DNA of 64,000 bases from assembly GCA_002295635.1 (NCBI GenBank), contig DBHK01000027.1, forward strand, positions 5,920 to 69,919, given 5' to 3'. The DNA is from Alphaproteobacteria bacterium UBA830. Lineage in GTDB: Bacteria; Pseudomonadota; Alphaproteobacteria; MPNO01; UBA830. The notes below the pieces were generated by a model, which worked only from the letters and a program-made list of their open reading frames with translations, was not told the origin of the DNA and did no database searches. The position numbers were made by a program, and so were the translations under genes. Positions 1,782-25,898 of the stretch are shown in pieces (the first letter of the stretch is position 1; every line of letters starts with the position of its first letter).

Positions 1782-3260
1782 CTACCGATACTTTTCCGGC
1801 AGGTGCTTTGCATACTTGGCACGGATACGATCGTCGAGTTCTTGCGAAGATCGCGCAACAGCCGGGAAATCATCGCGTTTTCGGAAAGGGATGCAAGCAT
1901 CAACGACGACACGTGAATTACGGCGGTCGTGATCATCGTCGTAGCACATCGGATCCAGGTGGGTGCTCCAGCAACCGTTTATAATATCTATTCCTTCTCG
2001 CGGGTCATGGCGTGTGCACATTGCCCAGACCACGTCATTCATATTCGCTGGATCTATATCGTCATCCACCACCACTACCCAGCGGTTTGCGTAGGCGCCA
2101 GCGTGGCATTGCGATGCGACTAGTCCTACCTGTTTCGAATGGCCACCATACATCTGTTTGATCGAAACTGTTAGCCACATACGGCTACCGCCTGCTTCAT
2201 GCGCGTAGACACCCTGGACGCCGGGAATACCGGCGGCTTCCAGCTGGTTCCAGACGGCGGCAGCACGGTATGCTCCCATATAGTAAGTGTTGTCATTAGG
2301 TGGAACTGCCGGAATCGCGCCGGTAATAACCGGATTGTCCCGGTGCATAAGTGTTTCGATTCGGATCGCTGGTTCTGGTCGCTGACCGCCAGCATAATAT
2401 CCAGTCCATTCGCCAAGCGGGCCTTCAAGAATCTCGTCATCGACGTCGATGAAGCCCTCGAACGCGATCTCGGCACTGGCGGGAACCGGAAGCCCTGTAG
2501 TTGGCATGTTTATAACTTCTACGCTCTCTCCGAAGATGCCGCCCACTACATCCAATTCGTTAGTTTCATAGGGTACTTCAAACCCCCCGATCATAAACAT
2601 CACTGGGTGGACACCCGCCACCACAGCGACCGGACATTTCTCGCCTCTATCATGATATTTTTTCATGAGGAGACGGGCATGTTTACCGGGAGACATCATC
2701 ACGGTAGCGACGCGAGGTTCATGCGCCTGAACTCGATAAGTACCGTAATTTACCCATCCAGTATCTGGGTCTCGCATAGCCACTATGCAGCCAGTACCAA
2801 TGAAGTTTCCGCCATCGTGTTCATGCCATTTGGGCGACGGTAGGCTCTGGATATTAACAGCTTCTCCTTCTGTGACGTTCTCGACGAGCGGTCCTCCGTT
2901 AACTTCTACCGGCCGATGAGCTGGCGCCTCACCTAGGTAGTGGCGCCACCACCTGATCAAGTCTTCTTCGGTTGCTTCAGGAGGAAGGCCCAGCGCTATC
3001 GCACAACGCGGGCGAGACATGATGATATTGGCAAGGACACGGTGGCCATTGGGGAAGCCGGGAACGTCGTCGAATAACAGCGCCGGATTATCAAGGTCGC
3101 GCATAAAAATATCAACGAGGCCGCCAATATCCTCTTCGGTTTCGGCACCACTTATTCTCTCTAACTCGCCAATTTTATCGATTTCATCGAGAAAATTACG
3201 AAGATCTTTATTTGCCACGTCTAGTCTCCCTACGCTTAGCGCTGTCATCTTACCAGACAA
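1782..3260 (-). CDS. UbiD-family (prFMN-dependent) aromatic acid decarboxylase
   Basis: 492 aa. The N-terminus has the NKDLRNFLDEIDKIGEL motif typical of UbiD/VdcC-like decarboxylases, and length and overall layout fit the family. Confidence 0.85.
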   Translation of the reverse strand: MSGKMTALSVGRLDVANKDLRNFLDEIDKIGELERISGAETEEDIGGLVDIFMRDLDNPALLFDDVPGFPNGHRVLANIIMSRPRCAIALGLPPEATEEDLIRWWRHYLGEAPAHRPVEVNGGPLVENVTEGEAVNIQSLPSPKWHEHDGGNFIGTGCIVAMRDPDTGWVNYGTYRVQAHEPRVATVMMSPGKHARLLMKKYHDRGEKCPVAVVAGVHPVMFMIGGFEVPYETNELDVVGGIFGESVEVINMPTTGLPVPASAEIAFEGFIDVDDEILEGPLGEWTGYYAGGQRPEPAIRIETLMHRDNPVITGAIPAVPPNDNTYYMGAYRAAAVWNQLEAAGIPGVQGVYAHEAGGSRMWLTVSIKQMYGGHSKQVGLVASQCHAGAYANRWVVVVDDDIDPANMNDVVWAMCTRHDPREGIDIINGCWSTHLDPMCYDDDHDRRNSRVVVDACIPFRKRDDFPAVARSSQELDDRIRAKYAKHLPEKYR

Positions 3261-3295
3261 TTGAATCTTCAGAGCCTGCGGTCAAGGCGTGTTAA

Positions 3296-4144
3296 TCAGG
3301 TATGCCAATCGGTTATGGTAAGACGACGCAAAAGCCTCTCCTCTCCCTCTGGAAAATCTGTGCGAGCATGGTTCAGGCATCGATTATCCCAGATTAAGAG
3401 ATCTCGGGCTTTCCATTTGTGGGAGTATACAAAATCAGGATTTTCAGCGTGATCGAACAAAATGTTAAGTAGATCATCGCTCTCATCTCGCTTCATACCG
3501 ATGACGTGGCGCGTCATTAAACGGCTCAGATATAATGATTTACGGTTGGTCACCGGGTGCAACTTAACAAGGCCGTGGGTCGCAGCAGATGTGTCTGGTT
3601 CAGTTTCCTCGGTGGTTTCCTCGCGAAAGGTGTCGTCGTAGCCGTAGAGGTTTCTGACCTGTAATTGGTCAATACGGCTTTTTAGATCTTCATCTAACGC
3701 GTCGTAAGCCATGGCTAGGTTGGCAAACAATGTATCCCCGCCGCGGGATGGCAATTTTATTGCGTAAAGTGTGGTCGCGGCATAGGGCGTATCCCTGTGT
3801 GCGCCATCGGAATGAAATTGCATTTCGCCGTCCGGCAAAGACCCGATAGGCTCACCGTTTTTCCGGATATTACTGACCAGCATTACACCACGATTTCTGA
3901 CTTCTCCCCCCCCATAACCGGATCGAACTCGATATCCTGAATCTACCGGCCCGAAAAGGTCACCAAACCTGATCTGATCGGACGCCGTCAGCTTTTGACC
4001 TCGAATGCATAGAATTGAGTTCTTGTAGAAAGTTTCTCTAATCAATCCCGCAGTGTCATCATCCACTGGTCTTGTTAGATCCACGCCTTCTACCACCGAA
4101 CCGACTATGTTACTCAGAGGTTTAATATTTATCGTTGAAGACAT
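3296..4144 (-). CDS. TauD/TfdA-family Fe(II)/2-oxoglutarate-dependent dioxygenase
   Basis: 282 aa. Putative HxD...H iron-binding residues (HSDGAH...) and overall similarity to taurine dioxygenase-like proteins. Confidence 0.8.
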   Translation of the reverse strand: MSSTINIKPLSNIVGSVVEGVDLTRPVDDDTAGLIRETFYKNSILCIRGQKLTASDQIRFGDLFGPVDSGYRVRSGYGGGEVRNRGVMLVSNIRKNGEPIGSLPDGEMQFHSDGAHRDTPYAATTLYAIKLPSRGGDTLFANLAMAYDALDEDLKSRIDQLQVRNLYGYDDTFREETTEETEPDTSAATHGLVKLHPVTNRKSLYLSRLMTRHVIGMKRDESDDLLNILFDHAENPDFVYSHKWKARDLLIWDNRCLNHARTDFPEGEERLLRRLTITDWHT

Positions 4145-4228
4145 TGTAGAAAACTATGTACCGGCAAGATGATCCCTGTCAAAAGGGAATTTGAAGACAA
4201 ACCGAATACACACAAAGGGATCAAGCCT

Positions 4229-5122
4229 ATGACGAGTTTCAGGTTGCTGAATTATGCGGGTATTGAGGGTGAGCCTCGCCCCGGGATTGTAGTCGGCGAT
4301 TCAGTCATCGATCTTAGTTCCGCAGGTATGAGTGGATCCACATATGAAATGCTTCAGAATTGGGATGCCAATCACGAGAAATTGGTGAAAATCGCTGGTG
4401 ATGCCGAGTTGCACGAGCAGTATCCTCTATCGGATACTGACCTTCTTGCCCCCATTCTATATCCGCCGATCGTATACAATGCCGCTGCCAATTACATTGA
4501 TCACCAAAAGGAAATGTCAGGCGGGAAGCAGCTCGTAAAGGAAGATACCCATCCCTATTTTTTTCTTAAAGCCGGGCCGCATTGCATTATAGGCCCAGGA
4601 GCCGATATCCGATTGCCGGCTGTATCAGATTTTATTGATTGGGAGGCGGAACTAGCGGTCGTGATTGGAAAGCCCGCCCGGAATATTAAGGCGAAAAATG
4701 CCTCACAATACATTGCCGGTTATACCATCTTCAACGACCTGTCGGCGCGTGACATGAAACCCGTTGGGCGGACATTCAACGTGCACTGGTTTGCCCACAA
4801 GAATTTTGATGGTTCTGGTCCGATGGGTCCATGGATGGTGCCCGCCTCGGATATTCCCGATCCACATAATTTAGATATCAAGCTTTGGTTGAACGATGAA
4901 CTGAAGCAGGACTCAAACTCAAAATACTTGTTCTTCAATATCTTCGAGCAGATCGAATACATTTCTGCTCGTATGACTATGCGCCCTGGCGATATAATTG
5001 CCACTGGAACGCCATCCGGTGTAGGGGCCCCCTATGGGGGGCGTTTGAAACCAGGCGATACGGTGACGATAGAAATTGGCGGAATCGGAAAGTTGGTCAA
5101 TCCGGTAGTGCAGGGGGACTGA
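4229..5122 (+). CDS. Fumarylacetoacetate hydrolase (FAH) family protein (hydratase/decarboxylase type)
   Basis: The C-terminal FAH-domain region is recognisable (GTPSGVGAPYGGRLKPGDTVTIEIGGIG). Start chosen at MTSFRLLNY (AAGGGA SD upstream) rather than the upstream ATG at 4169. Confidence 0.75.
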   Translation: MTSFRLLNYAGIEGEPRPGIVVGDSVIDLSSAGMSGSTYEMLQNWDANHEKLVKIAGDAELHEQYPLSDTDLLAPILYPPIVYNAAANYIDHQKEMSGGKQLVKEDTHPYFFLKAGPHCIIGPGADIRLPAVSDFIDWEAELAVVIGKPARNIKAKNASQYIAGYTIFNDLSARDMKPVGRTFNVHWFAHKNFDGSGPMGPWMVPASDIPDPHNLDIKLWLNDELKQDSNSKYLFFNIFEQIEYISARMTMRPGDIIATGTPSGVGAPYGGRLKPGDTVTIEIGGIGKLVNPVVQGD

Positions 5123-5131
5123 ACCTCACTT

Positions 5132-5503
5132 CTAAATAATCGTAGCGGATTGATCCGAATAGTTTATCCTGACATTAAAGCTTCCTTCGTTCATAGACCA
5201 ATTCCAAATGTCGAATTCGCGTAGGCCGGCGGCATGGAGGGGATCCTTCATCGCGATTTCATGCGCGTGTTCGAACGAGTCCGCACGAACTATGATCATG
5301 CCGGTACGCACCTTATCTTCATCCTGCGTTTCCATTGGCCCAGCGGCAAACAGGATTCCTTGTCGTTCTAGTTCCACCTGACGTTCTAGATGTTGTGGCA
5401 AAAGCTCCATTATTTTGTCTTTTGGCGCGGTCGGCCGAGTGAAGATGACATATAAACCTTTCAGCGGTATATCCTTGGTTTTTGGTGTTTTTGTGATCGC
5501 CAT
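5132..5503 (-). CDS. YciI-like / Dabb-type small protein
   Basis: 123 aa. YciI-like ferredoxin-like fold signature (LLPQHLERQVELERQGILFAAGP). Confidence 0.6.
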   Translation of the reverse strand: MAITKTPKTKDIPLKGLYVIFTRPTAPKDKIMELLPQHLERQVELERQGILFAAGPMETQDEDKVRTGMIIVRADSFEHAHEIAMKDPLHAAGLREFDIWNWSMNEGSFNVRINYSDQSATII

Positions 5504-5685
5504 TTAGGACCTTTCTTTTTGTTGGTGGCCTAGACTATTAATGCCATTCAAGGGAATGCATCTGGTGAAGCTGGGTGCCTTAGTCGAACTTGGACCGGTG
5601 ACGTAAACACCGGTACCGACTTCCAAAGCAATTGTTACTGTGCAGCAGATGGCGCGGGTGCGAGGATTGACCTAAGCCTGTGGTA

Positions 5686-6729
5686 TTATCTATCCAATGT
5701 GTTTGGTGAGAATACTTCGCTGAGATCAAGTTTCCGCGGAGTTAGACCCTGTTCATAAGAATAAAGTGTAATGGCTTCGAGTTCTTCGCGGTTGGCAATA
5801 ACACCCTGCCGGACCAACGGGGTACGCAAGGCGGCCTCCGCCTCCCGAGGCAAGAGCCCAGTTTCAAGGTGGTCCATAACCATGGACATGCGCTGATTCT
5901 CCACATATTCAGTTGCTTCCTCGAACGCCTTGAATATGTTTAGGATTACCCAAGGATGTTCCTCCGCAAATTTTCGCTTAATCACCATTCCGTGATTTAT
6001 GGGATAAAGGTTATTTTTAGCGTAGTAGCGTTTTCCTTCGGCATAAGGGTCAGGGAAGAGTGGTGCGAAATCCGGGTGATTGTGGAGATCGGCGGTACTC
6101 CGGTCGACAAGGTTTCCACCTGGTAGATAGAGCAGTGTCGCATCTAGTTCTTTGGCAAGAAGCATCTCGCCCATGTTAGTCTCAGCGGGTATGCGGTGCA
6201 CCTTGACGCCATCGGGCGGCTCGAAACCTGTAGAACCTCCGTGACTTATATCTGGTGTACGTTCCATCCAGAATTCCATGTCCTTCGGAGCAACCCCAAA
6301 TTCATGTTCGAGAATACCGCGAGACCAAAGCGCTGCAGTCTGCTGGTACTCCGGTACGCCAACTCTTTTGCCGGCGAGATCTTCAGGTCTTTGGATCCCG
6401 GAATCCTTCCGGATCAAAATCCAATTCTGGAAAAAATAATGCGTCGAGAAGATCGGCAGGCCAATGAAACGGTCGTCGCCGCTCGCAATTGCCATCAGAA
6501 GCGACGACATCGACATTTCCGATATGTCGAATTCAGAGAACTTAAGCTGCCGCCAAAAAAGTTCAGACGGGTGAAGTTCCACGGGTGCTAGATCGATCCC
6601 CTCGGCATTAAACATTCCGTCGAGTATCGGCCGTGTTCGGAGATTTGGTGTTAGGGCAATACTTAATGACAACCCTTGTCCACTACCACCGCGAGTTCGC
6701 GCCTTAATTGTCTCGGGTCCCATTGATGA
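5686..6729 (-). CDS. NMT1/THI5-like (SsuA/DszB-type periplasmic-binding-fold) cytoplasmic protein
   Basis: Start trimmed to MSSMGPETIK. The longer ORF start at 6870 would overlap the upstream aldolase gene. No signal peptide, so an enzyme role (desulfinase/THI5-like) is more likely than a transport binding protein. Confidence 0.6.
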   Translation of the reverse strand, partial: SSMGPETIKARTRGGSGQGLSLSIALTPNLRTRPILDGMFNAEGIDLAPVELHPSELFWRQLKFSEFDISEMSMSSLLMAIASGDDRFIGLPIFSTHYFFQNWILIRKDSGIQRPEDLAGKRVGVPEYQQTAALWSRGILEHEFGVAPKDMEFWMERTPDISHGGSTGFEPPDGVKVHRIPAETNMGEMLLAKELDATLLYLPGGNLVDRSTADLHNHPDFAPLFPDPYAEGKRYYAKNNLYPINHGMVIKRKFAEEHPWVILNIFKAFEEATEYVENQRMSMVMDHLETGLLPREAEAALRTPLVRQGVIANREELEAITLYSYEQGLTPRKLDLSEVFSPNTLDR

Positions 6730-6748
6730 CATCTTCTTGCTCTCCAAA

Positions 6749-7462
6749 TTACGAATTCTTAGTAGCGCGACGGCACCAGACTTCCCAAGCCCGATCAAGA
6801 CTAATCGGCGCCTGCTGCATACTCGTACACTCCTCGATTTCGATATCCGTAAGGAAGTCAGGCTCGCCAATCATCATGGTTTGAAGTTGTAGTTTAGCGT
6901 TTACCTGCAGATAAATTGCCTTCATCACTGTCTCTTCTACAGTGGCTCCCGTCACGACACAGCCGTGGCGTTTCATCAATGCGATCATACCGCTTCCTAG
7001 TGAAGCCGCCAGGTCTCGGCCCTGTTCCATGGTTACGACAAGATGGTTGGTTTCACCGAATTTATCGCGCATATCCCATACCGGGATGTTCTTTCCGATG
7101 GGGGCGCAAGTGTGTGTGACCGGGCGGAGCGGCGTGCCAGTTGAGGCAAAGGGGATCACTTCGTACGAATGATTATGAATTACCACGTTTACATCTGGCC
7201 GCTGCTCATAAATTGCCCCATGGATCATTCGCTCGCTATAAGGCCGTCGGTCGCCGGCATCGATGGCTTCGCCGTCTAGCCGATAAGTGACTATATCGTC
7301 TGTCTCTATTAGTTCCGGCGCCCGGGCACGCGACAGGAGATATTTCTCCCGATCGCCGGGGTGTCGAAAGCTAATGTGGCCGTATGCGTCAACTACTTCT
7401 TCGTGCGCAAGTATGTGATTGGCGACGACGATATTGTTTAACGTTCCGGCGTCTACATTCAT
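6749..7462 (-). CDS. Class II aldolase/adducin-family protein
   Basis: Start at MNVDAGTLNN. HNHS motif and overall fuculose-phosphate-aldolase-like layout. Confidence 0.8.
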   Translation of the reverse strand: MNVDAGTLNNIVVANHILAHEEVVDAYGHISFRHPGDREKYLLSRARAPELIETDDIVTYRLDGEAIDAGDRRPYSERMIHGAIYEQRPDVNVVIHNHSYEVIPFASTGTPLRPVTHTCAPIGKNIPVWDMRDKFGETNHLVVTMEQGRDLAASLGSGMIALMKRHGCVVTGATVEETVMKAIYLQVNAKLQLQTMMIGEPDFLTDIEIEECTSMQQAPISLDRAWEVWCRRATKNS

Positions 7463-7542
7463 GCGTTGTCCTTTGTTCACACTTGGGCCTTTATGGCCAA
7501 GAAGAGAAATTACAGCGATCGAAATCCCGGTATGGCCCAATA

Positions 7543-7573
7543 CGGCGGGCTGGCATTTTTATGCCGCCCGCCG
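7543..7573 (-). terminator. GC-rich hairpin downstream of the peroxiredoxin-like selenoprotein gene (candidate terminator, weak U-tract)
   Basis: On the minus-strand transcript: CGGCGGGCGGCAU-AAAAA-UGCCAGCCCGCCG, followed only by UAUU. Confidence 0.35.
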
Positions 7574-7581
7574 GATCAGAA

Positions 7582-8049
7582 TCAGCGGGATTCGTAGAAA
7601 TTGATAAGTTTGACCACGTCTTCAGCCTGCATACGACCCAATGGGCCGTCACAGTAGCTAGATGCGATAACATTGTTATCAGGGCCGAGTATAAATTCGG
7701 ACGGCTGGATGATCTGACGGCGGTCCTCCCACCAAGATCCCAAAGCGTCCGCCATATCACGACTTACACCTTCGCCAACAGGGAAGTTAACTTCGTCAGC
7801 GACCTGACTCGATTCTTCTCCCGTGTCGATACTTGCTGCGACGACAGATACACCAATCTTATCTAGTTCTGCCTTTTGGTCTGAAAAGCCGACTAACTGT
7901 CGGCGACAGTAGGGTCACCAATGACCCCGGTAAAATAGAATAACCTTATATTTTGTATCGAGGCCTCTTGGAAGGTCCATCGAACCACCCCCGACAAGAC
8001 CGAGCGTCATGTCGGGGAATGCGTCGCCTATACCAAGTTTATCGGGCAT
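7582..8049 (-). CDS. Peroxiredoxin-like (AhpC/TSA/redoxin thioredoxin-fold) SELENOPROTEIN; in-frame UGA (7915-7917) decoded as Sec in a GHW-U-PYC redox motif
   Basis: AAGGAGG lies 5 nt upstream of the ATG at 8047-8049. The translation is MPDKLGIGDAFPDMTLGLVGGGSMDLPRGLDTKYKVILFYRGHW[U]PYCRRQLVGFSDQKAELDKIGVSVVAASIDTGEESSQVADEVNFPVGEGVSRDMADALGSWWEDRRQIIQPSEFILGPDNNVIASSYCDGPLGRMQAEDVVKLINFYESR, ending at the stop at 7582-7584. The UGA sits at the position of the N-terminal Cys of the W-C-P-x-C motif in Cys homologues. A hairpin follows 10 nt downstream. Confidence 0.8.
7888..7904 (-). promoter_or_regulatory. Candidate bacterial SECIS hairpin for the peroxiredoxin-like selenoprotein
   Basis: GCCGAC-AGUUA-GUCGGC (6-bp stem, G/U-containing loop) starts 10 nt 3' of the UGA. 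The palindrome CUGUCGCCGACAG overlaps it. Confidence 0.5.
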
Positions 8050-8175
8050 ACGTCCTCCTTTTTGTCAAATAATCGCGGCAAGTTTATACTTTAATAGCCA
8101 AACTATGCATGGTGGTGTTTTCCAAAGCAACGACATAGCTGGATGTCGCCAGTTAATTTTTCTTAATGCGGGATA

Positions 8176-9315
8176 TTACTCAGCTGCCGAGTTTATCCCA
8201 ATACTGTCCAGTATCTCCTTCTGCCGGCCAAATTCATCAATACCAATTTCTTTTCGAAGATCGGCACTCATCTCCGCTTTGTCGGCTTCCAATGGCGCAC
8301 CTGTAGCATCGGCCACACGATCGATGGCGTTGAAAAGAGCGGCTACGCCCGCAGAGTCAACTACTGCGTCGGGACCAAGGGCCTTAAGGATTTCCTGCCG
8401 GGCATTGGTAAGGCGAGGCCTATCTTCGCCGAGGATGGCCTCGGCGAATTCAATCATAAGTTCGCCGTATTCAATTCCGGTATTTCCCGCATCGGCGCCG
8501 CCGGTGATGGCATTATAGTCGAGATTGTTTCCAGAGTATTCGCTGCCCGCACGGAGCAGTACCGAGTGGCTAGTCGTTCAATAAGTACATTGATTGAGCG
8601 CCGATACTCGCGCTGCCAGCAATTCGATCTGCAGATGTGTGATTGCGCGAAACTCCTGAGTAAAATCTCGCATCTCGGGGCCGCTTAGATACTGCGCTGC
8701 GACCACGTCAAAGAACCCACGCGCCTCATCAGGTACTAAGGTAAGGGCTCGACGAATATTAGACTCCGGCCCTACAAAGTAATCTGCCTCATTCGGGCCA
8801 TATTCGTCCCAAGCTATGTTAGGTGACCACGCTTGGTGCTGACGTGCCTCAGCCGGGCGATAGTACGAAGGTTCACCGCTCTGGGCTTCTGGCAAAGCGC
8901 GGACTGGCACACCGATCCCATTAGCGAAGGTATCGATCGCGGTAGTATGAGCCACTATGCTGACGATTTCGACGAAGTGCGTTTCCAGAATACCGCTATC
9001 GATGGTTTTCTTGTACCACGTTTGTGTCAAACGACCTGGGTCCGCAACGATCAGATGGATCATATTTACCCAATTTTGGGGTAGGTCAGTCCCGGAATCG
9101 AAGGGTTCGGTAATAGAAAATGGTGATAGTGCTTCCCTGATTTTTGCGTAGCCGGGACAGTCCCGAGCGTGGCGCGCCTCCGCCATCACTTTGAGACGCT
9201 CCTCGCCTGTTAGCCAATTTCCCGCTTTAGATAATCTATCCCAAGCGCGTTGATGGGCTTCGACAATGTCTTCTCGAACGGAATAAGGCGAGTCATCGTA
9301 ATTGATGTTTGACAT
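8176..9315 (-). CDS. AhpD-like / carboxymuconolactone-decarboxylase-family SELENOPROTEIN; UGA at 8578-8580 read as Sec joins ORFs 8578..9315 and 8176..8457
   Basis: The upstream ORF ends ...RVSALNQCTY-TGA. Downstream the same frame is open with no stop for 134 codons, through the track ORF 8176..8457. The motif spanning the UGA is C-T-Y-U-T-T-S-H, which matches the AhpD catalytic C-x-x-C-x-x-x-H exactly. The downstream part carries the CMD C-terminal helix AALFNAIDRVADATG. Confidence 0.65.
8543..8559 (-). promoter_or_regulatory. Possible SECIS-like hairpin for the AhpD-like selenoprotein
   Basis: CUGCUC-CGUGC-GGGCAG (6-bp stem including one G-U pair, GU-containing loop) starts 18 nt 3' of the UGA. 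Confidence 0.3.
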
Positions 9316-10401: not shown

Positions 10402-12690
10402 TCAATTTCCGTTATCCCGCAATGCATTGCGGAGTCGATCAGGTGTAATAGGCAACTCTTTTATGGAGATACCGTGCGGACGAAGCGCCCGGGAAACCGC
10501 ATTGCTAACGGCGGCGGCAACGGCGACGATCCCGCCTTCACCTGCTCCCTTGAACCCCATCGGATTGAACTCTGATGGTGAATCCTCTAGCGCGATAGCT
10601 GTGATCTCCGGTAATTCAGACGTGGTTGGCAATAGGTAGTCTGCAAAGCTACCGGTCAGAAGCTGACCGTCAGTGTCATAGATAAAATGATCGAGGAACG
10701 TACCACCCAAGCCCTGGACTACGCCGCCAACCGCCTGACCCTGCACCAAAGCGGGATTGAGTGCCCGTCCAATCTCTTCAGTTAGCCAGTACCGTTCGAC
10801 CTCAACGACACCGGTTTCAATATCTACCGCGACCTGTGCCGCATGGGCGCCGTATGAATATGAGATACGTTTTTCATTATCAAAAATAGCATCGGCGGCC
10901 AGGGTTTCGCCCCGGTGTTCCGAGAAAGACGCTAGTTCCTGCAAGCTCAGTCTTTCGTTATATCTATACACTGCACCATCGCTATAACGCAGGTTTTCCG
11001 GGTCGCAGTTCCAGCGCAGCGCTGCAATGCCTACAGCATGGTCTTTCAGTAAATCGGCAGCGATACGCGTTGCATTGCCGGCCATTACAGTATTACGGCT
11101 GTGGAAAGTGCCACCGCCTGTTTTCACCAGCGTCGTGCTGCCGTGGAGAACCTGAACACGGGCGATATCAATATCTAGGTAATCAGCGCAAATCTGTGCA
11201 AGCCCTGTCTCGGTTCCCTGACCAACTGATGAAGCACCGGTACGAATGGTCACTGTGCCGTCTGACGTTGCGGTTATGTTTGCTGACTCCGGTGGTCCGG
11301 CGGCACTACTTTCGATAAAACATGCAATACCGAGGGCGCGAGCCCGACCATCCGAGTCTGGGACGTTGGTGGGCCAGTCCGTGTATCGGCATTCCTTCAA
11401 AAGCCGGTCTAGAGCAGCAGGATAATCGCCCTTATCCAACGTTGCCTCAGTGTCTCCCGGAACGAGCTCACCTATTTTGTATGGCAGATCCGCCGGGGTC
11501 ATCAGATTGCGTCGGCGCAGTTCTGCTGGATCGAGGTCTAGATCATCCGCCATCAGGTCTAAGAGACGTTCGCGGCAGAAATTAGCTTCAAAGCGACCCG
11601 GACCGCGGAATGTGCCCACTGGGGTTTTGTTGGTGATCAAAAACTGCACATCGCAGCTAAAAGAAGGTACCCGATATGGGCCTGGAAGAAACTGTGCGGC
11701 CTTCGACGGTACTACACCGCCATTGGTTCGAACATAGGCTCCCATGTCGCCCCGAACTGTTCCCCGCATACCGAGGATTTCGCCTGTCGCCGTCGCGGCT
11801 ATTTCAAGATCGCAGATGATATCGCGCGAATGGTTGGTTGCGGTCAGGTTTTCTCGCCGATCCTCGATCCATTTTACTGGACGTTCTGTACGCCTACTTG
11901 CAAGAGGAACCAGATAGTCCTCCGGATACAGTTCGCCGCGAGCACCGAAGCCGCCGCCTACATCCGTCTCGATTAGCTCGACGGAACTTTCAGGCATGTC
12001 AAACGCTTCTGCCAGATGCCGGCGATTGAAGAAATTAACCTTTGTGGCACCATGCAATCGTAATAAGGGTTTAGAGATATCGAATTCCGCGATCAGGCCG
12101 CGTGTCTCCATCGGTACGGCGCCGTGACGGTTGGTGATGAAGCGTTCATGCCGGGTATAGGCAGCCCCGTCGAACGCCTCTTTGGTGTTGCCGCGGCTAA
12201 CGGTGTAACGGGTTCCCATATTTTCGCCCGCTGCTTCGTGGATCAATATTTGTCCATCGAAAGCTTGATCAACGGTGGTCACAGCTGACAGCGGGTCAAA
12301 CTCGATCTCGATCAGTTCTAGAGCATCTTCTGCAACATAGCGGTCCTCAGCAATTACGACGGCAATTGGCTCACCTACATATCGCACTTTGTTGACCGCA
12401 ATCGGACATTGCAGAAATCTCTCGAAGCCGTCAAATGGAGCTAGCCTAAGAGGAATAGTCGGCAAATCATTCTCCATATCCGCAGCGCAGAATACGTCGA
12501 TTACCCCTTCAAGCGCACGCGCCGTATCGAGATTGATAGTCTTTATAAGAGCGTGAGCATGGGGACTGCGTAACACTGCCATAATTGCCATACCAGGCAG
12601 TTTGACGTCGTCAATATAGATACCCTCTCCAGTTAGTAAGCGTTGATCTTCCAGCCGCGAAACGGACTTTCCTATATATCTCCGGCTCAA
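10402..12690 (-). CDS. Xanthine dehydrogenase-family molybdopterin-binding large subunit (CoxL/CutL homologue, not a bona fide CO dehydrogenase)
   Basis: 762 aa. N-terminal a/b hammerhead and molybdopterin-binding domains. The active-site loop reads GTFRGPGRFEANF rather than the CoxL form I/II signatures. Confidence 0.85.
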   Translation of the reverse strand: MSRRYIGKSVSRLEDQRLLTGEGIYIDDVKLPGMAIMAVLRSPHAHALIKTINLDTARALEGVIDVFCAADMENDLPTIPLRLAPFDGFERFLQCPIAVNKVRYVGEPIAVVIAEDRYVAEDALELIEIEFDPLSAVTTVDQAFDGQILIHEAAGENMGTRYTVSRGNTKEAFDGAAYTRHERFITNRHGAVPMETRGLIAEFDISKPLLRLHGATKVNFFNRRHLAEAFDMPESSVELIETDVGGGFGARGELYPEDYLVPLASRRTERPVKWIEDRRENLTATNHSRDIICDLEIAATATGEILGMRGTVRGDMGAYVRTNGGVVPSKAAQFLPGPYRVPSFSCDVQFLITNKTPVGTFRGPGRFEANFCRERLLDLMADDLDLDPAELRRRNLMTPADLPYKIGELVPGDTEATLDKGDYPAALDRLLKECRYTDWPTNVPDSDGRARALGIACFIESSAAGPPESANITATSDGTVTIRTGASSVGQGTETGLAQICADYLDIDIARVQVLHGSTTLVKTGGGTFHSRNTVMAGNATRIAADLLKDHAVGIAALRWNCDPENLRYSDGAVYRYNERLSLQELASFSEHRGETLAADAIFDNEKRISYSYGAHAAQVAVDIETGVVEVERYWLTEEIGRALNPALVQGQAVGGVVQGLGGTFLDHFIYDTDGQLLTGSFADYLLPTTSELPEITAIALEDSPSEFNPMGFKGAGEGGIVAVAAAVSNAVSRALRPHGISIKELPITPDRLRNALRDNGN

Positions 12691-13175
12691 ATTGATACCC
12701 CGCCGCTGCGGCGTGCCGCCGCGTCCATAATTGCGTCAACAATTGATACGTACCCCGTACATCGGCAAATATTCCCAGAAATCGCACTTTCGACTTCGGC
12801 ACGGGTTGGTGTCGGGTTCTCGCCTAGGAAAGCTTCCGCAGTCGTTAACATCCCTGGAGTGCAGAAACCGCACTGCAGCGCATGGTTGTCGCGAAACGCC
12901 TCTTGAAGTGGAGACAGGTTCTCACCTTCGGCGAGACCTTCTACTGTTGTGATATCCATTTTGTGGGCTTGGACCGCAAAAATCAGACAAGACCGTATTG
13001 CCGCTCCATCAGCTATTACGGTGCAGGCGCCACACACGCCGTGTTCGCATCCCAGGTGTGTGCCCGTAAGATCTAGTTGTTCGCGCAGGCAATCGGCCAG
13101 TGACATGCGGGCGTCGACATCGCAGCTATACGAGGTGCCGTTTACTTTTAGAGATATGGCATGGCGGTTTGTCAC
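12687..13175 (-). CDS. (2Fe-2S)-binding small subunit of the molybdenum hydroxylase
   Basis: 162 aa. CEHGVCGACTV and CGFCTPGM cluster motifs. 4-bp overlap with the large subunit. Confidence 0.9.
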   Translation of the reverse strand: MTNRHAISLKVNGTSYSCDVDARMSLADCLREQLDLTGTHLGCEHGVCGACTVIADGAAIRSCLIFAVQAHKMDITTVEGLAEGENLSPLQEAFRDNHALQCGFCTPGMLTTAEAFLGENPTPTRAEVESAISGNICRCTGYVSIVDAIMDAAARRSGGVSI

Positions 13176-14041
13176 AGATTACGTTTCCAGGCTTCAGAGA
13201 GAGTTCGCTTTAGGAGGACTGCGGAAACTTCGCGCCGATATGCGATAGAGGCATGGATATCGTCGAATGGATCAATATCGGCATCAATGGTATCTGCGGA
13301 TTCTTTGAATAGGCCGAGGGAGGGTTCAGATCCCATTAGGGTGTTTTCCGCTCTGTGAAGACGAAGCGGTGTATCACCTGCCCCTATTGCTACGCATGCG
13401 CAGTTGGATATGGCGCCGCCGTCATTGATGTCAAACCAAGCTGCGACGCCCACTAGGGCAAAGTCGCCTTCCCGGCGGGAGATTTCTTTGAATCCCCAGT
13501 GACGTTGTGTCGGCCAGGGTGGAAAACAGATTTTTTCGATCAACTCACTACTGTCAGCGGCTGTCGTAAAAACGCCTTGAAAAAAGTCGACTGCAGGAAC
13601 AACCCGAGGGCCGGCCGGTCCGCGTAGGTGAATTTTTGCTTCACAAACTAAAGTAATTCCCGGCAATTCGGCTGCTGGATCCGCGTGAGCGACACTGCCA
13701 CCCAATGTGCCTCGGTTTCGGATTTGGAAATGAGCAATATGGGCTGCGGCTGCGGCCAGCAAGGGATTGTTCTTTTCGATGTCAGGATCTGTTTCAAGCC
13801 GGCGGGTACGTACCATGGGGCCGATTTCTAGGCCGCCATCTGGGCTTATCCGGATATCTGCGAGCTCGGAAACACCGTTAAGGTCAATAAGCGCGGACGG
13901 TGAAGCGACACGAAAGTTCATCATCGGTACGAGGCTTTGTCCGCCCGCAAGATATCGGGCGTCCTCACCATTCTCCCGCATCATAGCGATTGCGCCATCG
14001 ACACTATCTGCAGCAAAGTAGTTGAACTTAGATGGTTTCAT
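13172..14041 (-). CDS. FAD-binding medium subunit of the molybdenum hydroxylase (CoxM-like)
   Basis: 289 aa. FAD-binding region (YLAGGQSLVPMMNFRVASP). 4-bp overlap with the small subunit. Confidence 0.85.
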   Translation of the reverse strand: MKPSKFNYFAADSVDGAIAMMRENGEDARYLAGGQSLVPMMNFRVASPSALIDLNGVSELADIRISPDGGLEIGPMVRTRRLETDPDIEKNNPLLAAAAAHIAHFQIRNRGTLGGSVAHADPAAELPGITLVCEAKIHLRGPAGPRVVPAVDFFQGVFTTAADSSELIEKICFPPWPTQRHWGFKEISRREGDFALVGVAAWFDINDGGAISNCACVAIGAGDTPLRLHRAENTLMGSEPSLGLFKESADTIDADIDPFDDIHASIAYRREVSAVLLKRTLSEAWKRNL

Positions 14042-14268: not shown

Positions 14269-15468
14269 TCACCTCTTCTCTCCAGTGGTGGTTATGAGGG
14301 CGCGCTCGATTTGAGCAGCCTGCTTCAAAAGAATCTCATCTCCGTCAGGTGAGCCCATTAATTGAACCCCCGTTGGGATCGTAAAGTGCGACAAGGGATT
14401 TGGTATGCTGACAACTGGATTTCCGGTAATATTTGCAAGGCATGTCAGGATAGTCATCGCAACAACGACTGGTACTTCTTGACCACCGAGCAGGGCTCTA
14501 CGAGCCTCACGATGTGGTGGAGCGATCGGCAGGGTGGGCGACAACAATAGGTCGATTGTCTCTAGGGTTTTTTGTAAGTGGTCGGAGGCAGCGCGGGCCC
14601 ATTCCCAAGCTGCATCGACGCTTTCTACCGACAGATTCTCAGCATGACGAAGGCCCGCAATAGCAGCCGTACCGAGACGGTTACGCTCGGCTTCCGTCAA
14701 TTCCATATATATTTTCCCCGCTTCTGATAGAACGATAACGGCATGCGCCTCTGCGATCTGTTGCCTGGCAGGTATGGTTACTCTCGTAATGTTGTGTCCC
14801 GAGATCTTTAACTGGTGAGCTATCTCATCAAGTTCGGTTGCGATTGATTCAGTGAACAGACCGGCTCGGTCTTCTTCGATAGCGATGCAAAGCCCCTCTG
14901 TGATCTCGGCCGATTCTTCAATTCCGTCGATAAGAACGATGCTGGCCCGGGTCAAAATTTCCAAATTTCGCGCAATCAGACCTACATGGTCGAACTGGGG
15001 TGTCAACGGCCATACACCGTCGTTGGAAACACGCCCGTATGTCGGTTTGAATGAAGTAAGACCAGTACAGGCAGCAGGTATGCGCACGCTACCGCCGGTA
15101 TCCGTACCCACGGCAAAGTCGCAAAACCCTGCTGCCACGGCGGCCGCCGATCCACCAGAGGATCCGCCGATAATAAGATCGGGGGCGATTGGGTTGGAAG
15201 TCTGCTGCGTTGATGCGCCGAAGCCCCCCGCGTCAGTTTGTGTCATGCCGACAAAGTCAGCGCCGGCTGCAAAAAGAGATGCCACGCTTGGTGCCGTTGC
15301 CGAGGCTCGTCTGTCCGCTAGTAATGGGTGGCCGGCGGTGAATGCTCGACCATCAATCGCTACGTTATCCTTTACCGCAAAAGTCAGTCCATCAAGCTCG
15401 CCCGCAGCAGTGGGCTCAATACGCGTCTTTTCAACGAACGCGTTCCAACGGTCTTCCTTTGGAGGCAT
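14269..15468 (-). CDS. Amidase (amidase-signature family)
   Basis: Amidase-signature glycine/serine-rich stretch GGSSGGSAAAVAAG, with a candidate catalytic Lys in FAVKDN. Confidence 0.85.
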   Translation of the reverse strand: MPPKEDRWNAFVEKTRIEPTAAGELDGLTFAVKDNVAIDGRAFTAGHPLLADRRASATAPSVASLFAAGADFVGMTQTDAGGFGASTQQTSNPIAPDLIIGGSSGGSAAAVAAGFCDFAVGTDTGGSVRIPAACTGLTSFKPTYGRVSNDGVWPLTPQFDHVGLIARNLEILTRASIVLIDGIEESAEITEGLCIAIEEDRAGLFTESIATELDEIAHQLKISGHNITRVTIPARQQIAEAHAVIVLSEAGKIYMELTEAERNRLGTAAIAGLRHAENLSVESVDAAWEWARAASDHLQKTLETIDLLLSPTLPIAPPHREARRALLGGQEVPVVVAMTILTCLANITGNPVVSIPNPLSHFTIPTGVQLMGSPDGDEILLKQAAQIERALITTTGEKR

Positions 15469-15490
15469 GATGAGGAACGTACCGACCCCG

Positions 15491-16300: not shown

Positions 16301-16329
16301 TTTGTCTCTTCCATTTCTGTTTTTCTAAT

Positions 16330-17332: not shown

Positions 17333-17428
17333 TGGCGGAAAAGAGTGGGAGTCGAACCCACCAGGGACGTCTAACGCCCCTCACCGGTTTTGAAGACCGG
17401 GCGCCCCACCGGGGAACGAATCTCTTCC
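17333..17428 (-). tRNA. selC: tRNA-Sec (anticodon UCA)
   Basis: 96 nt: GGAAGAGAUUCGUUCCCCGGUGGGGCGCCCGGUCUUCAAAACCGGUGAGGGGCGUUAGACGUCCCUGGUGGGUUCGACUCCCACUCUUUUCCGCCA. It has an 8-bp acceptor stem, a UCA anticodon in a CUUCAAA loop, a long variable arm and a GGUUCGACUCC T-arm. Its architecture is near-identical to E. coli selC. Confidence 0.85.
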
Positions 17429-17533: not shown

Positions 17534-19459
17534 TCAGTCTTTGTTGAAAGCCTCCTCTGCAGGACGGATTATCTCATGCCCGTCGCCTACGCGGCGGGTG
17601 AATTTGACCTTGTCAAAGAATTCTAAAACCTCGATAGATAGGTTCCGGCCTATTCCCGACGCGTCGCGAAAATTTGCTGCGGTCACCATGCCTTCGTCTG
17701 CGGATGCTGCCACTTTTTCCGCGATCTCGCCTAGCTGGCGCAGGGCATCTGGCTGATAAAATCGGTTTTTTGCTATTCGAATAACGAGACCGTGACGTCC
17801 TGCTCGAACCAGCAGAGACTCGATTTTACTAGGCTCTTTGTCGATTGCTTGCGCGATCTCAACAATAACTGGCGGTCGCAGTCCCCCATTGACTAGAAGC
17901 GGTTTTATTTTATTCCAATTCGAGGCGTCGGCCCCTTGCAGTTTTGGCTTATGCGACAGTAGCCGCACGCCCATACCTTCTTTGACTATGACACCTTCAC
18001 GCACCAGCTCAGCACAAATAGAAGCCGTCGCGTTGCCGGGTAGACGAAGACCTGTGCCCACCAGGATACGGTTCTCGCCAGGTCCAACCGTGTCGGGAGA
18101 TTTTTTATGCCAGGCGCCAAGAGCCTCTAAAACCGCGGTACGGAGGATGTCCCAGCGGTTATGGGAGAAACCTAGCAAGCCTTTCTCGGTTGATATCGAT
18201 TTAATTGGAACAAGCTCTTGTAGAGCCTCCATGTCGGAGTCGGTTAGATTGCGTGCTGAAGCGAAGCGGTCGAGGAAGAGACCTTCGGGTGAGGTTTCCA
18301 GCAAGGCAGTCAGTGCGATACCATCGTCTCCCTCCTCCATCGCTTTTAAGAAAGCTATACGCTCAGGTCTGGCCCGTCCTCGCGCAGGTGGGTAGACGTC
18401 TATGACGCGGCCGCCACCTATCGTTCGTTGCGCAGACTGATCACGAATTATTAACCCGTCACTATGAACCGCGGCCATAGGATGATCGAGTACAAGTTGC
18501 GCGAGCTTATTTTCGCCCGCCGCTATACTTTGCTCTCCAAGAATAGCGACCCGTCCGGTGGACTCTGATGCGCCGAGATGGACATGAACCGGGGTCCAGT
18601 GAGCAAGCGGCCGAGCTTCTGACTGAAGAACCTGAAGCCTTACATCTATTTTTCTTACTGCCGGAGGCGGATGGCCGGTAACGATCCAGTCGCCGCGCTG
18701 TATCAGCCGACTGTCGAGATCCGGCCCTGTAAGATTTAGCGCACAGCGTTGACCTGCGTGTCCGGCGTCGGTTTTTGCATTTTGCGCATGAAGGCCGCGC
18801 ACTCTAACGTCGATCTCTGCACCCAAGACCCGGGCGCCTGCGCCGGTTTTCAGATGACCGGAAAAGGCGGTGCCAGTAACCACAAGCCCTGCGCCGGTAA
18901 CCGCAAAGCATCGGTCGATGGCGAGCCGGAAATTTCCTGTCGACGCGCGTGGTGGCATCTGGGCTGCTGCATCGATGAGGTGTTGTTTTAAATCACTGAT
19001 CCCTTCGCCAGTTAGTCCAGATAGCGGGAAAACGGGAGCTCCATCTAGCGATGTACCGAGTAAAAGCTCGTCAATCTGCTCGGATACCTCGACGGCGCGC
19101 ATATCATCAACCCGGTCGATTTTGGTTAGGGCTACCGCGCCATCTGAAACGCCGAGCAAGTCGAGGATTGCTAGGTGTTCTCTGGTTTGCGGCATCGGTC
19201 CGTCGTCAGCGGCGACAGTGAGTAACGCGAAGTCGATACCGACTACGCCACATAACATATTACGAATAAATTTTTCGTGTCCGGGGACGTCTATAAACCC
19301 GATAGTTTCCGCTCCATCTATCGGAAGATAGGCGAAGCCAAGATCGATGGTCAGATTACGTTTCTTTTCTTCAGGCAGCCGATCGGTATCAACCCCGGTC
19401 AACGATTTTATTAGGAGGGTTTTACCGTGATCAACGTGGCCGGCTGTAGCAACAATCAT
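17534..19459 (-). CDS. selB: Selenocysteine-specific translation elongation factor SelB
   Basis: 641 aa. N-terminal MIVATAGHVDHGKTLLIKSLTGVDTDRLPEEKKRNLTIDLGFAY with GTPase G motifs. Long C-terminal winged-helix region. ATGA overlap with selA. Confidence 0.9.
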   Translation of the reverse strand: MIVATAGHVDHGKTLLIKSLTGVDTDRLPEEKKRNLTIDLGFAYLPIDGAETIGFIDVPGHEKFIRNMLCGVVGIDFALLTVAADDGPMPQTREHLAILDLLGVSDGAVALTKIDRVDDMRAVEVSEQIDELLLGTSLDGAPVFPLSGLTGEGISDLKQHLIDAAAQMPPRASTGNFRLAIDRCFAVTGAGLVVTGTAFSGHLKTGAGARVLGAEIDVRVRGLHAQNAKTDAGHAGQRCALNLTGPDLDSRLIQRGDWIVTGHPPPAVRKIDVRLQVLQSEARPLAHWTPVHVHLGASESTGRVAILGEQSIAAGENKLAQLVLDHPMAAVHSDGLIIRDQSAQRTIGGGRVIDVYPPARGRARPERIAFLKAMEEGDDGIALTALLETSPEGLFLDRFASARNLTDSDMEALQELVPIKSISTEKGLLGFSHNRWDILRTAVLEALGAWHKKSPDTVGPGENRILVGTGLRLPGNATASICAELVREGVIVKEGMGVRLLSHKPKLQGADASNWNKIKPLLVNGGLRPPVIVEIAQAIDKEPSKIESLLVRAGRHGLVIRIAKNRFYQPDALRQLGEIAEKVAASADEGMVTAANFRDASGIGRNLSIEVLEFFDKVKFTRRVGDGHEIIRPAEEAFNKD

Positions 19460-20859
19460 TCGAGAATTTCAAGAGTTGAAAGTTGTGAAAGGAATCCGGG
19501 TTCATCTGCCATACAGCGTAGATCAACGATGAAGGCACCTCCCTGAACGCGTCCAATAACTGGCACTGGCAGACCGCGAAAGGCCCGTACGAGTCGTTCA
19601 ACTGCCGCACCGTTCTTAGTTTCAGGAGTGATTGCGAGGCCCGCGCTAGGAAGTTTGCGGGTCGGTAATGTACCCGAACCGACTTGGCTGTCGCAGTCCA
19701 CCTCTTCGACTTTGGCAAACCCTTTTACGGCTCTAGAGATTGCAGGCCGAATCCGGGAGGCTGTTTCCTGAATATCAGTCACTGACCGGGTAAGCGCACG
19801 CAGCGTGGGCAATCGGTCGGATAGACTATCTGGATCGGAATAAAGACGAAGCACGGCGGATAACGCTGCGATAGTCATTTTGTCACAGCGTAGTGCTCGT
19901 TTTATGGGGTTGCTCTTTAAACGAGTGATGCAGTCTTTGGTACCAACGATGATACCTGCCTGCGGTCCACCCAATAGCTTGTCACCCGAAAATGATACCA
20001 TATCGGCACCGTGCTTTAGGGCTTCCATTGGAGTTGGTTCATGTGGAAGTCCAAGCCGCTTTAGTTCCGTCAGAGTGCCGCTGCCCAGATCGATGGCAAA
20101 TGGAATTCCAGTCTCATGACACAGCTTGGCGAGATCAGTTTCCGGCACCTCCGCGGTGAATCCTTCTACTACATAGTTACTGGTATGGACCTTCATGATC
20201 ATTCCGGTATTCGGTCCGATAGCTGCGGCATAATCCTTTAAATGGGTCCGGTTGGTGGTGCCAACCTCGACCAGTTCACATCCTGACTGTGCCATAATAT
20301 CCGGCATACGGAACGAACCCCCGATCTCTATTAACTCTCCTCGAGATGTAGGTGTTTCCTTACCAAGTGCGAAGGTATTGAGGATCAACATAACTGCCGC
20401 GGCATTATTATTGACGACGGTTGCCGCCTCAGCACCGGTGATTTCACAAAGCTGTGCCTCGACATGGTCATCCCGGTCTCCGCGCTTTCCTTCTTCCAAA
20501 CTATACTCGAGGTTGGTTGCGCTGCGCGCCGCCCGGGAGATGGCTTCAATAGCTTCCTCCGGAAGCGCCGCGCGACCCAAGTTCGTATGAATGACCGTTC
20601 CTGTTAGATTATAGACTGGTCGGAGAGACGGCAAATTCTCCTGCGCCAGACACTCCGCCACTGCATACAATATCTCTGTTTCGTGCGGTATCTTGTTACC
20701 GGAAAGCACAGAACCGCGAATTTCTTCTAGCGTCTTTCGGATGCAATCCGTTACTAATTTGCGGCCATATTCCGAAATCAGCTTCACGGCATTATCCGAA
20801 TTCAACAGGCGATCAACAGACGACAGGCCCGCAAGAGGCGAAGAGGTTTTCTTTGGCAT
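19456..20859 (-). CDS. selA: L-seryl-tRNA(Sec) selenium transferase SelA
   Basis: PLP-dependent. LAGLSSVDRLLNSDNAVKLISEYGRKLVTD aligns with the E. coli SelA N-terminus. Start placed at MPKKTSS. An alternative upstream start at 20937 would abut the prfC stop. Confidence 0.85.
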   Translation of the reverse strand: MPKKTSSPLAGLSSVDRLLNSDNAVKLISEYGRKLVTDCIRKTLEEIRGSVLSGNKIPHETEILYAVAECLAQENLPSLRPVYNLTGTVIHTNLGRAALPEEAIEAISRAARSATNLEYSLEEGKRGDRDDHVEAQLCEITGAEAATVVNNNAAAVMLILNTFALGKETPTSRGELIEIGGSFRMPDIMAQSGCELVEVGTTNRTHLKDYAAAIGPNTGMIMKVHTSNYVVEGFTAEVPETDLAKLCHETGIPFAIDLGSGTLTELKRLGLPHEPTPMEALKHGADMVSFSGDKLLGGPQAGIIVGTKDCITRLKSNPIKRALRCDKMTIAALSAVLRLYSDPDSLSDRLPTLRALTRSVTDIQETASRIRPAISRAVKGFAKVEEVDCDSQVGSGTLPTRKLPSAGLAITPETKNGAAVERLVRAFRGLPVPVIGRVQGGAFIVDLRCMADEPGFLSQLSTLEILE

Positions 20860-20938
20860 GACCGTGAGACAATACTGCTTGAAACGGTGTTGGGAAATGT
20901 CTTGTTGAAACGTGGTAGCAGGGAGAATACCAAACACC

Positions 20939-22543: not shown

Positions 22544-22698
22544 TGATGAGTCCAAAAAACTTTTTAGCACTATCCGCGCCGACTCGATGCAATATAAGGC
22601 TGTTTTATCGTAATTCCAGTACAGCTTGCCTGTCGCCATGCTAATCTCTGGCGTTTAGGATAGGTGGGAAGGATGGCAAAAATAGGGAGGGCGGGTCG

Positions 22699-24009: not shown

Positions 24010-24011
24010 TA

Positions 24012-25806: not shown

Positions 25807-25898
25807 GGATGAGCCCTTAGGAAAATTCTTATCTACCGGTTATGGGGTAGTGCTCACCTGTATGTTAGTCTTTGCGCCATCGAACAATGGGGATCTAT

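Follow-up and report, generated by a model that had tools for sequence, protein, structure and literature searches.

A predicted Prx-like 1 UxxC selenoprotein gene with an in-frame UGA in Alphaproteobacteria bacterium UBA830

Can a reading frame that is interrupted by a UGA codon, and that gene prediction passes over, encode a single redox protein? This question is raised by the minus strand of positions 7582 to 8049 in a 64,000-nt stretch of DNA from Alphaproteobacteria bacterium UBA830 (assembly GCA_002295635.1, contig DBHK01000027.1; hereafter the window). A reading of the bare sequence, hereafter the original prediction, had placed an unannotated peroxiredoxin-like selenoprotein gene there. 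We conclude with high confidence that 8049..7582 encodes a 155-residue cytoplasmic UxxC selenoprotein (U, selenocysteine, Sec) of the Prx-like 1 type, decoded and acting in the manner proposed below. The gene is a further orthologue of a known family; its identification corrects an annotation gap and is no new discovery. Its absence from annotation is due to gene callers, which halt at the UGA, and to the lack of a dedicated NCBIfam model of the family.

The frame opens with an ATG at 8049-8047 and runs over 155 sense codons to a TGA stop at 7584-7582. Its only internal TGA is located at 7915..7917 (minus strand), exactly as first described; read as Sec, it is codon 45. A Shine-Dalgarno element, AAGGAGG, is located at 8054..8060 on the same strand; the element had been recognized correctly, but its spacer to the ATG is 4 nt (ACGT) and not 5 nt. 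In addition, the start at 8049 is backed by the homologues, all of which begin with M-x-[DE]-K-L-G-I-G. Around the UGA the translation reads ...KVILFYRGHW*PYCRRQLVGF..., which positions the Sec codon in a GHW-U-PYC motif. The second residue of UxxC, Cys48 (codon TGT, 7906..7908, minus strand), aligns with the peroxidatic Cys of peroxiredoxins and is invariant in the alignments.

With U read as C, the product matches the Pfam profile AhpC-TSA (PF00578) with an E value of 2.9e-19 (69.7 bits for a cutoff of 26); Redoxin is a further Pfam match. Profile searches had been suggested as a check of the gene, with such hits as the expected outcome. The PF00578 match continues across the UGA, residues 7-128 of the protein covering positions 1-122 of the 124 in the profile. 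Because one AhpC-TSA domain spans the UGA, this codon is interior to one gene. Moreover, the first start codon 3' of the UGA in the window is that of Met98, so codons 46-97 are expressible only via read-through.

Two sets of relatives were used to examine conservation. A search of 5.8 billion proteins yielded 506 relatives, the best 120 of which provided the residue-column counts. A scan of one genome per GTDB species yielded 335 stretches encoding a relative, the best 80 of which provided all locus counts given here. These 80 loci show 62-89% identity, aligned over residues 1-155, and belong to Rhodospirillaceae, Hyphomicrobiaceae, Devosia, Defluviicoccus, Filomicrobium, Burkholderiales and one Gemmatimonadaceae metagenome-assembled genome. 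The codon aligned with Sec45 is TGA in 80/80 of them.

Among the best 120 proteins, 84 are fragments of 91-108 residues, mostly 104-105, that begin just past the UGA, and 31 are full length with Trp printed at the Sec column. Cys occupies this column in three proteins, Arg in one and Gln in one. The Cys codon is TGC in protein P0009 (locus L081, open reading frame (ORF) 6001-6480) and TGT in P0003 (L084, 5483-5959), which are natural Cys homologues. Homologues thus carry Sec or Cys at this position, as anticipated in the original prediction. The Arg form uses CGA (L083, 1187-1867) and has an aberrant C-terminal tail, and the Gln form uses CAA (L087, 250-720) and belongs to a cluster of 28 sequences. 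All these natural variants retain Cys48; its retention in the Gln and Arg forms hints that Cys48 may be able to act alone.

Across the relatives, the entropies at codon positions 1/2/3 are 0.42/0.13/1.20 bits for codons 1-44 and 0.41/0.25/1.28 bits for codons 57-155. Because variation peaks at the third codon position on either side of the UGA, both halves are translated in the Prx-like frame, and the claim that this frame is kept through the UGA is borne out at the level of protein conservation. Since third-position variation follows the Prx-like frame, the overlapping ORFs 7384..7866 (plus strand) and 7491..7760 (minus strand) are noncoding. Their earlier dismissal as frame artefacts therefore holds, except that they are not both ATG ORFs, the one on the minus strand starting with GTG.

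The family was published in 2005 by Zhang et al. as "Prx-like", a predicted bacterial selenoprotein of the Sargasso Sea (PMC1088965), and was described by Zhang and Gladyshev in the 2008 Global Ocean Sampling (GOS) study as "Prx-like 1", a pfam00578 family with a UxxC motif and 225 Sec sequences (PMC2398784). The window protein is 56% identical (E=2e-51) to the published Sargasso "Prx-like" sequence AACY01221093. Sequences of the type VLFYRGHWuPYCRRQLVAFEE...IQPSEF...SSYSSGPLGR are found in the Sargasso supplement (PMC1088965), and GHWUP occurs at least 30 times under "#Prx-like 1" in the accessible part of the GOS supplement (PMC2398784). The published members and the window protein have in common the exact motif FYRGHWUPYCRRQL...IQPSEF...SSYS.GP.GR, the PF00578 domain, a TGA-encoded UxxC, a bacterial selenocysteine insertion sequence (bSECIS) directly downstream, a marine or aquatic bacterial origin and rare Cys homologues. 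Assignment to Prx-like 1 follows from the domain, the TGA-encoded UxxC, the similarity to published members and the Cys homologues at the Sec column. Nothing essential differs; the window adds a full-length sequence and a genomic context beyond the short reads of 2005 and 2008. Reviews of 2022 and 2026 (PMC13188914) place a "Prx-like thiol:disulfide oxidoreductase" among the computationally predicted selenoproteins.

How would the UGA be decoded? The hairpin GCCGAC-AGUUA-GUCGGC, pointed out in the original prediction as beginning 10 nt past the UGA, is indeed found at 7904-7888 (7888..7904, minus strand). Its 6-bp stem starts 10 nt and its 5-nt loop 16 nt past the UGA. According to the bSECIS model as cited in PMC13188914, a loop of 3-9 nt sits on a stem of 4-16 bp, one of the first two loop positions is a G that is usually followed by G or U, 16-37 nt separate the UGA from the loop, and the minimum free energy (MFE) is at most -7.5 kcal/mol. 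The candidate agrees with all four criteria. Its loop is A-G-U-U-A, AGUUR being invariant in 81/81 sequences (the 80 loci and the window); its spacing lies at the lower bound, and its MFE is -9.5 kcal/mol for the hairpin alone and -12.4 kcal/mol in a 40-nt context. Variants with a U.U pair reach -7.8 kcal/mol.

Comparative analysis points to the same structure. RNAalifold, unprompted, returned this hairpin as the consensus, and 96.5% of the hairpin cells are paired, as compared to 5-54% after displacement of the 3' arm by 1-3 columns. In an alignment of 65 segments 3' of the UGA, most positions are invariant up to column 37. Synonymous sites are frozen in this region: Arg49 is always CGC, Gln51 is CAG, Leu52 is TTR (never CTN) and residue 53 is GNC. 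Codons 49-56 have a third-position entropy of 0.54 bits, compared with 1.20 and 1.28 bits for the flanking codons; farther downstream, third positions are free to vary. Pair 24-32 is G.U in 33 of the 62 distinct sequences, A-U in 8, G-C in 5, U.G in 3 and U-A in 1. In the G-C, U.G and U-A cases, residue 53 changes from Val to Ala, Gly or Asp, matching the wobble base of Arg50. Compensatory changes are also observed at pair 23-33 in L082 (GCCAAC/GUUGGC) and at pair 21-35 in the Gln form L087, where C-G becomes U-A and the hairpin is kept. An alternative hairpin, CUGUC-GCC-GACAG, was rejected: it was not selected by RNAalifold and is mismatched in L001 and in CGT-containing loci.

The candidate SECIS resembles that of E. 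coli fdhF in being a hairpin inside the coding sequence 3' of the UGA, with G-U in a small apical loop and a spacing within 16-37 nt. However, its stem is much shorter (6 bp), it has no bulged U and no predicted lower helix, and SelB binding is putative. By analogy with fdhF, SelB-GTP with Sec-tRNA(Sec) would bind the 6-bp/AGUUA hairpin at UGA-45, and Sec would be inserted without termination.

The corresponding machinery shares the strand of the Prx-like gene and is encoded 9.3-12.9 kb upstream, in line with the 9 kb given earlier. It comprises tRNA-Sec (selC, anticodon UCA; 17333..17428), identified by ARAGORN and by Rfam RF01852 (75.7 bits for a threshold of 47), the Sec-specific elongation factor gene selB (17534..19459; Pfam GTP_EFTU, Beta-barrel_SelB and SelB-wing_3) and the selenocysteine synthase gene selA (19456..20937; Pfam SelA, E=5.5e-159). 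As a side observation, prfC, encoding release factor RF3 (20939-22639, minus strand), ends 2 nt before the selA start, giving the minus-strand order prfC-selA-selB-tRNA-Sec; none of the related loci with selA showed this prfC-selA adjacency.

What kind of enzyme is made? Residue equivalences were derived from phmmer alignments to the PDB sequences 2cx3 (A. pernix BCP), 7e4u (Prx1) and 3c71 (ResA). U45 aligns with the Ser/Thr of the peroxiredoxin motif PxxxT/SxxC in 2cx3 and 7e4u; in 3c71 its counterpart is the first Cys of CxxC, consistent with the earlier placement of the UGA at the first Cys of a thioredoxin-fold CxxC. Cys48, which corresponds to the peroxidatic Cys in BCP and Prx1, is the only residue retained from the canonical motif, the segment being R41-G-H-W-U45-P-Y-C48. 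At the position of the catalytic Arg (RxxF[IV][IV]) the alignment shows Pro116, part of an invariant QPSEF and the counterpart of the cis-Pro in ResA; R110/R111 might stand in for this Arg in three dimensions. None of the NCBIfam cutoffs was reached by the protein, those of the peroxiredoxin models included (best 31 bits for a cutoff of 211).

The fold was examined with AlphaFold2 on P0003, a natural Cys homologue that is 68% identical to the window protein and was modelled from a 34-sequence alignment (pLDDT 91.5, pTM 0.88). Helix 46-57 starts right past residue 45. The best structural matches in the PDB are BCP/PrxQ and other peroxiredoxins (Bcp4 3hjp, TM 0.82; 5epf), and the Foldseek TM values of 0.77-0.84 to canonical peroxiredoxins identify a peroxiredoxin fold. 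Because Sec replaces the Thr of TxxC and Cys48 stands at the peroxidatic position, we regard the protein as a UxxC thiol/selenol oxidoreductase built on a peroxiredoxin scaffold whose helix N-terminus bears a UxxC centre of the thioredoxin type. The label "peroxiredoxin-like" needs this qualification: the protein is no canonical peroxiredoxin.

Comparison with known systems delineates this class. Canonical peroxiredoxins (BCP/PrxQ, AhpC/Prx1, Prx6) agree with it in overall fold and in having a peroxidatic-position Cys within the first helix turn; their PxxxTxxC is RxxxUxxC here, Pro116 replaces their catalytic Arg, and the cutoffs of their curated hidden Markov models (HMMs) are unreached. PrxU (NF040737) is likewise a selenoprotein of the AhpC/TSA superfamily. 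However, its Sec replaces the peroxidatic Cys (TxxU), whereas here Sec is three residues upstream (UxxC; PMC1088965), and the window protein scores 23.8 bits against the PrxU cutoff of 270. With ResA/TlpA, the protein shares the alignment of Sec with the first Cys of CxxC and that of Pro116 with the cis-Pro preceding a beta-strand (3c71). Unlike these membrane-anchored, extracytoplasmic proteins, it has no hydrophobic N-terminal segment and is structurally nearest to peroxiredoxins.

From fold and alignment, Sec45 would cap the N-terminus of helix alpha-1 in a peroxiredoxin/BCP-like thioredoxin fold, and Cys48 would lie one turn into the helix, at the position of the peroxidatic Cys. The pair would cycle between selenol/thiol and selenenylsulfide, thereby reducing an oxidized substrate, either a peroxide or a disulfide. 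Either Sec45 or Cys48 may attack the substrate. In a true peroxiredoxin equipped with Sec, as opposed to a general CxxC-type disulfide oxidoreductase, Cys48 would attack the peroxide and Sec45 would be a resolving or activating residue. This is a possibility to be taken seriously, though we find it rather doubtful. The alignment of Cys48 with the peroxidatic Cys, structural matches that are all peroxiredoxins and not ResA/TlpA, and an AhpD-related neighbouring gene (see below) speak for it, as does the retention of Cys48 in the Gln and Arg variants, which is expected of 1-Cys Prx-like action. On the other hand, the other catalytic residues of peroxiredoxins appear, from the alignments, to be missing (Arg41 for Pro, Sec for Thr, Pro116 for Arg), and the peroxiredoxin models of NCBIfam stay far below cutoff. 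Furthermore, in thioredoxin-fold CxxC enzymes the nucleophile is normally the N-terminal residue at the helix cap.

A second selenoprotein gene, which the original prediction had missed, lies directly upstream (9315..8176, minus strand), separated from the Prx-like gene by 126 nt. It has 379 codons in one frame with one TGA (8580-8578; 8578..8580), in a C-T-Y-U motif. The protein matches NCBIfam NF041238 (AhpD_rel_CFYUT, "alkylhydroperoxidase-related (seleno)protein") with 437 bits for a cutoff of 175, over profile positions 1-356 of 357; a Pfam search gave no match at E<=0.001. The TGA is kept in all syntenic loci. A candidate SECIS, CUGCUC-CGUGC-GGGCAG (8543..8559, minus strand), has its loop 24 nt past the UGA and an MFE of -6.6 kcal/mol alone. 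The hairpin is conserved in syntenic loci as CUGCUC-CGUGC-GRGCAG, with a compensatory GUGCUC...GAGCGC in L013, L014 and L045. Neither selenoprotein hairpin was matched by any Rfam family in a scan at gathering thresholds, which returned two tRNAs only. In the 2026 review, the NF041238 family is identified with the Sargasso Sea "hypothetical protein 1" (PMC13188914), and clustering of Prx-like and AhpD-like genes has been noted in the literature (PMC2398784, PMC13188914).

The two genes probably belong to one operon. Mycobacterial AhpC and AhpD form a peroxidase-reductase couple. As in that system, an AhpC/TSA-fold gene adjoins an AhpD/CMD-family gene with a CxxC-type motif; by analogy, the CxxU selenoprotein would be the most likely redox partner of the Prx-like protein. 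In contrast to the mycobacterial pair, both partners carry Sec here (UxxC and CxxU), the AhpD-related protein has 379 residues with a large N-terminal extension, and the functional coupling is putative.

Several points weigh against our reading of the locus. As regards the SECIS, covariation is limited to very few pairs, since four of the six stem pairs are invariant and a fifth changes on just one side, and a U.U mismatch is present at pair 24-32 in 12 of the 62 distinct sequences. Among the non-Sec relatives, L084 (Cys) and L087 (Gln) still have the hairpin, whereas another Cys form, L081, has relaxed to CGT and CTA within the hairpin codons; because the hairpin survives in the first two, its conservation may be partly due to the CRRQLVG peptide or to recent conversion. 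Single-sequence fold z-scores are unremarkable (-1.2 to -1.5), which is why comparative analysis was needed, and the single-sequence MFE structure of 61 nt of the SECIS region does not contain the GCCGAC-AGUUA-GUCGGC hairpin. As regards the surroundings, no selD was found in the 64-kb window with a SelD motif pattern or by tblastn with the Ndh-SelD fusion, and the AhpD-related gene is directly upstream of the Prx-like gene in only 17/80 loci. Finally, the substrate and the redox partner of the Prx-like protein are inferred only, and the 2026 review lists the family only as "predicted with high confidence" (PMC13188914).

Linkage to sel genes raises the question of another function. Within 6 kb of the Prx-like gene, selB is found in 35/80 loci, selA in 29/80 and ndh-selD, a fusion of Pyr_redox_2, AIRS and AIRS_C domains, in 20/80, with at least one of them in 44/80. 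These counts include only neighbour clusters confirmed by Pfam or tblastn, as stop-to-stop ORF clustering is noisy from spurious high-GC ORFs. In related loci, ndh-selD often starts about 100 nt past the Prx-like stop, and tRNA-Sec is 70-190 nt from the gene in L027, L048, L051 and L052. A non-exhaustive literature search found no statement on this linkage.

Such an arrangement would fit a role in selenium metabolism, in which the protein would, for instance, pass selenide or a perselenide on to SelD or reduce the Ndh-SelD fusion, and would not act in general redox defence. We consider this role unlikely. A selenoprotein gene and sel genes are expected to travel together, as there are reports of entire Sec-utilisation pathways being transferred horizontally (PMC5029168), and linkage needs no functional role; co-inheritance of a compact Sec island is the simplest reading. 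The Prx-like gene and the sel genes of the window are set apart by 9 kb of unrelated catabolic genes. In addition, a role of this kind is without biochemical precedent in the Prx-like family. A more specific version, to which we give similarly little credence, has the UxxC protein supply or recycle reduced selenium for Ndh-SelD and, in the lineage of the window, also join its AhpD-related CxxU neighbour in an all-selenium redox relay.

Could the gene simply be broken? A pseudogene, or an assembly error at the TGA, would yield only a 44-residue N-terminal peptide or nothing. Gene callers left just such a 44-residue stub on a public metagenome contig that is 99.97% identical to the window, and decay does occur in the family, as in relative L083 with its CGA codon and aberrant tail. 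However, the independent assembly L085 carries the same TGA, as do 80/80 related species. Moreover, codons 46-155 are under strong purifying selection, with variation at third positions only, and no start codon follows the UGA before Met98. This explanation is very improbable, and we hold it, together with a reading under an alternative genetic code, to be effectively excluded.

Decoding of UGA as Trp or Gly without selenium is more improbable still: a Trp is printed in the 31 homologues mentioned above, presumably by gene callers that used code 4 on short contigs, but the one such entry that was checked in DNA (P0001) has TGA and a stored protein that is not its code 11 translation, a UGA-sense code is excluded because TGA is the ordinary stop of 20 of the 50 long ORFs in the window, the Prx-like gene included, genes for a dedicated tRNA-Sec, for SelA and for SelB lie close by, and only two TGAs in the 64 kb stand in a CxxU/UxxC motif with coding context, namely those of the Prx-like gene and the adjoining upstream gene.

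The remaining features of the window lie around this Sec UxxC gene. A GC-rich, strong hairpin (7536..7580, minus strand) starts 2 nt past the Prx-like stop (-29.6 kcal/mol, z=-4.9, 0/200 shuffles as stable). It has no U tract and was not called on the minus strand by a consensus terminator scan; it could be a transcript end or a stabiliser between the Prx-like and class II aldolase genes. A set of genes for a molybdenum hydroxylase of the xanthine dehydrogenase family (large, 2Fe-2S and FAD subunits) occupies 10402-14041 on the minus strand, and a second set, with its large subunit at 25872-28211 on the plus strand, is present in the same selenium-using genome. The surroundings consist of genes of aromatic and amide catabolism (1782-7540, 14269-17187 and 22699-25334). 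They encode a UbiD-family decarboxylase, a TauD dioxygenase, FAA hydrolases, a homogentisate dioxygenase, an amidase, a short-chain dehydrogenase/reductase, an alpha/beta hydrolase, an amidohydrolase and a class II aldolase. None of these catabolic genes is connected in an obvious way, through redox defence, with the selenoprotein pair.

The practical value of the locus is for annotation. Standard gene callers split or lose both selenoprotein genes; on the 99.97%-identical contig, the AhpD-related gene was cut into ORFs of 245 and 93 residues. Most of the best database relatives of the Prx-like protein are stored wrongly, either as C-terminal fragments (84/120) or with a spurious Trp in place of Sec (31/120), an artefact that is systematic for the family. 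NCBIfam models the AhpD-related neighbour and has no model that captures the Prx-like family, for which a dedicated HMM would recover hundreds of genes. Neither the gene pair nor its embedding among sel genes alters the current understanding of Sec decoding. If a role in selenium utilisation were true, it would account for the position of the gene in many Alphaproteobacteria and Burkholderiales, with selB/tRNA-Sec on one side and ndh-selD on the other. More broadly, the UxxC and CxxU pair and the embedding in a selA-selB-selC/ndh-selD cluster suggest hypotheses on the function of an abundant, uncharacterised marine selenoprotein.

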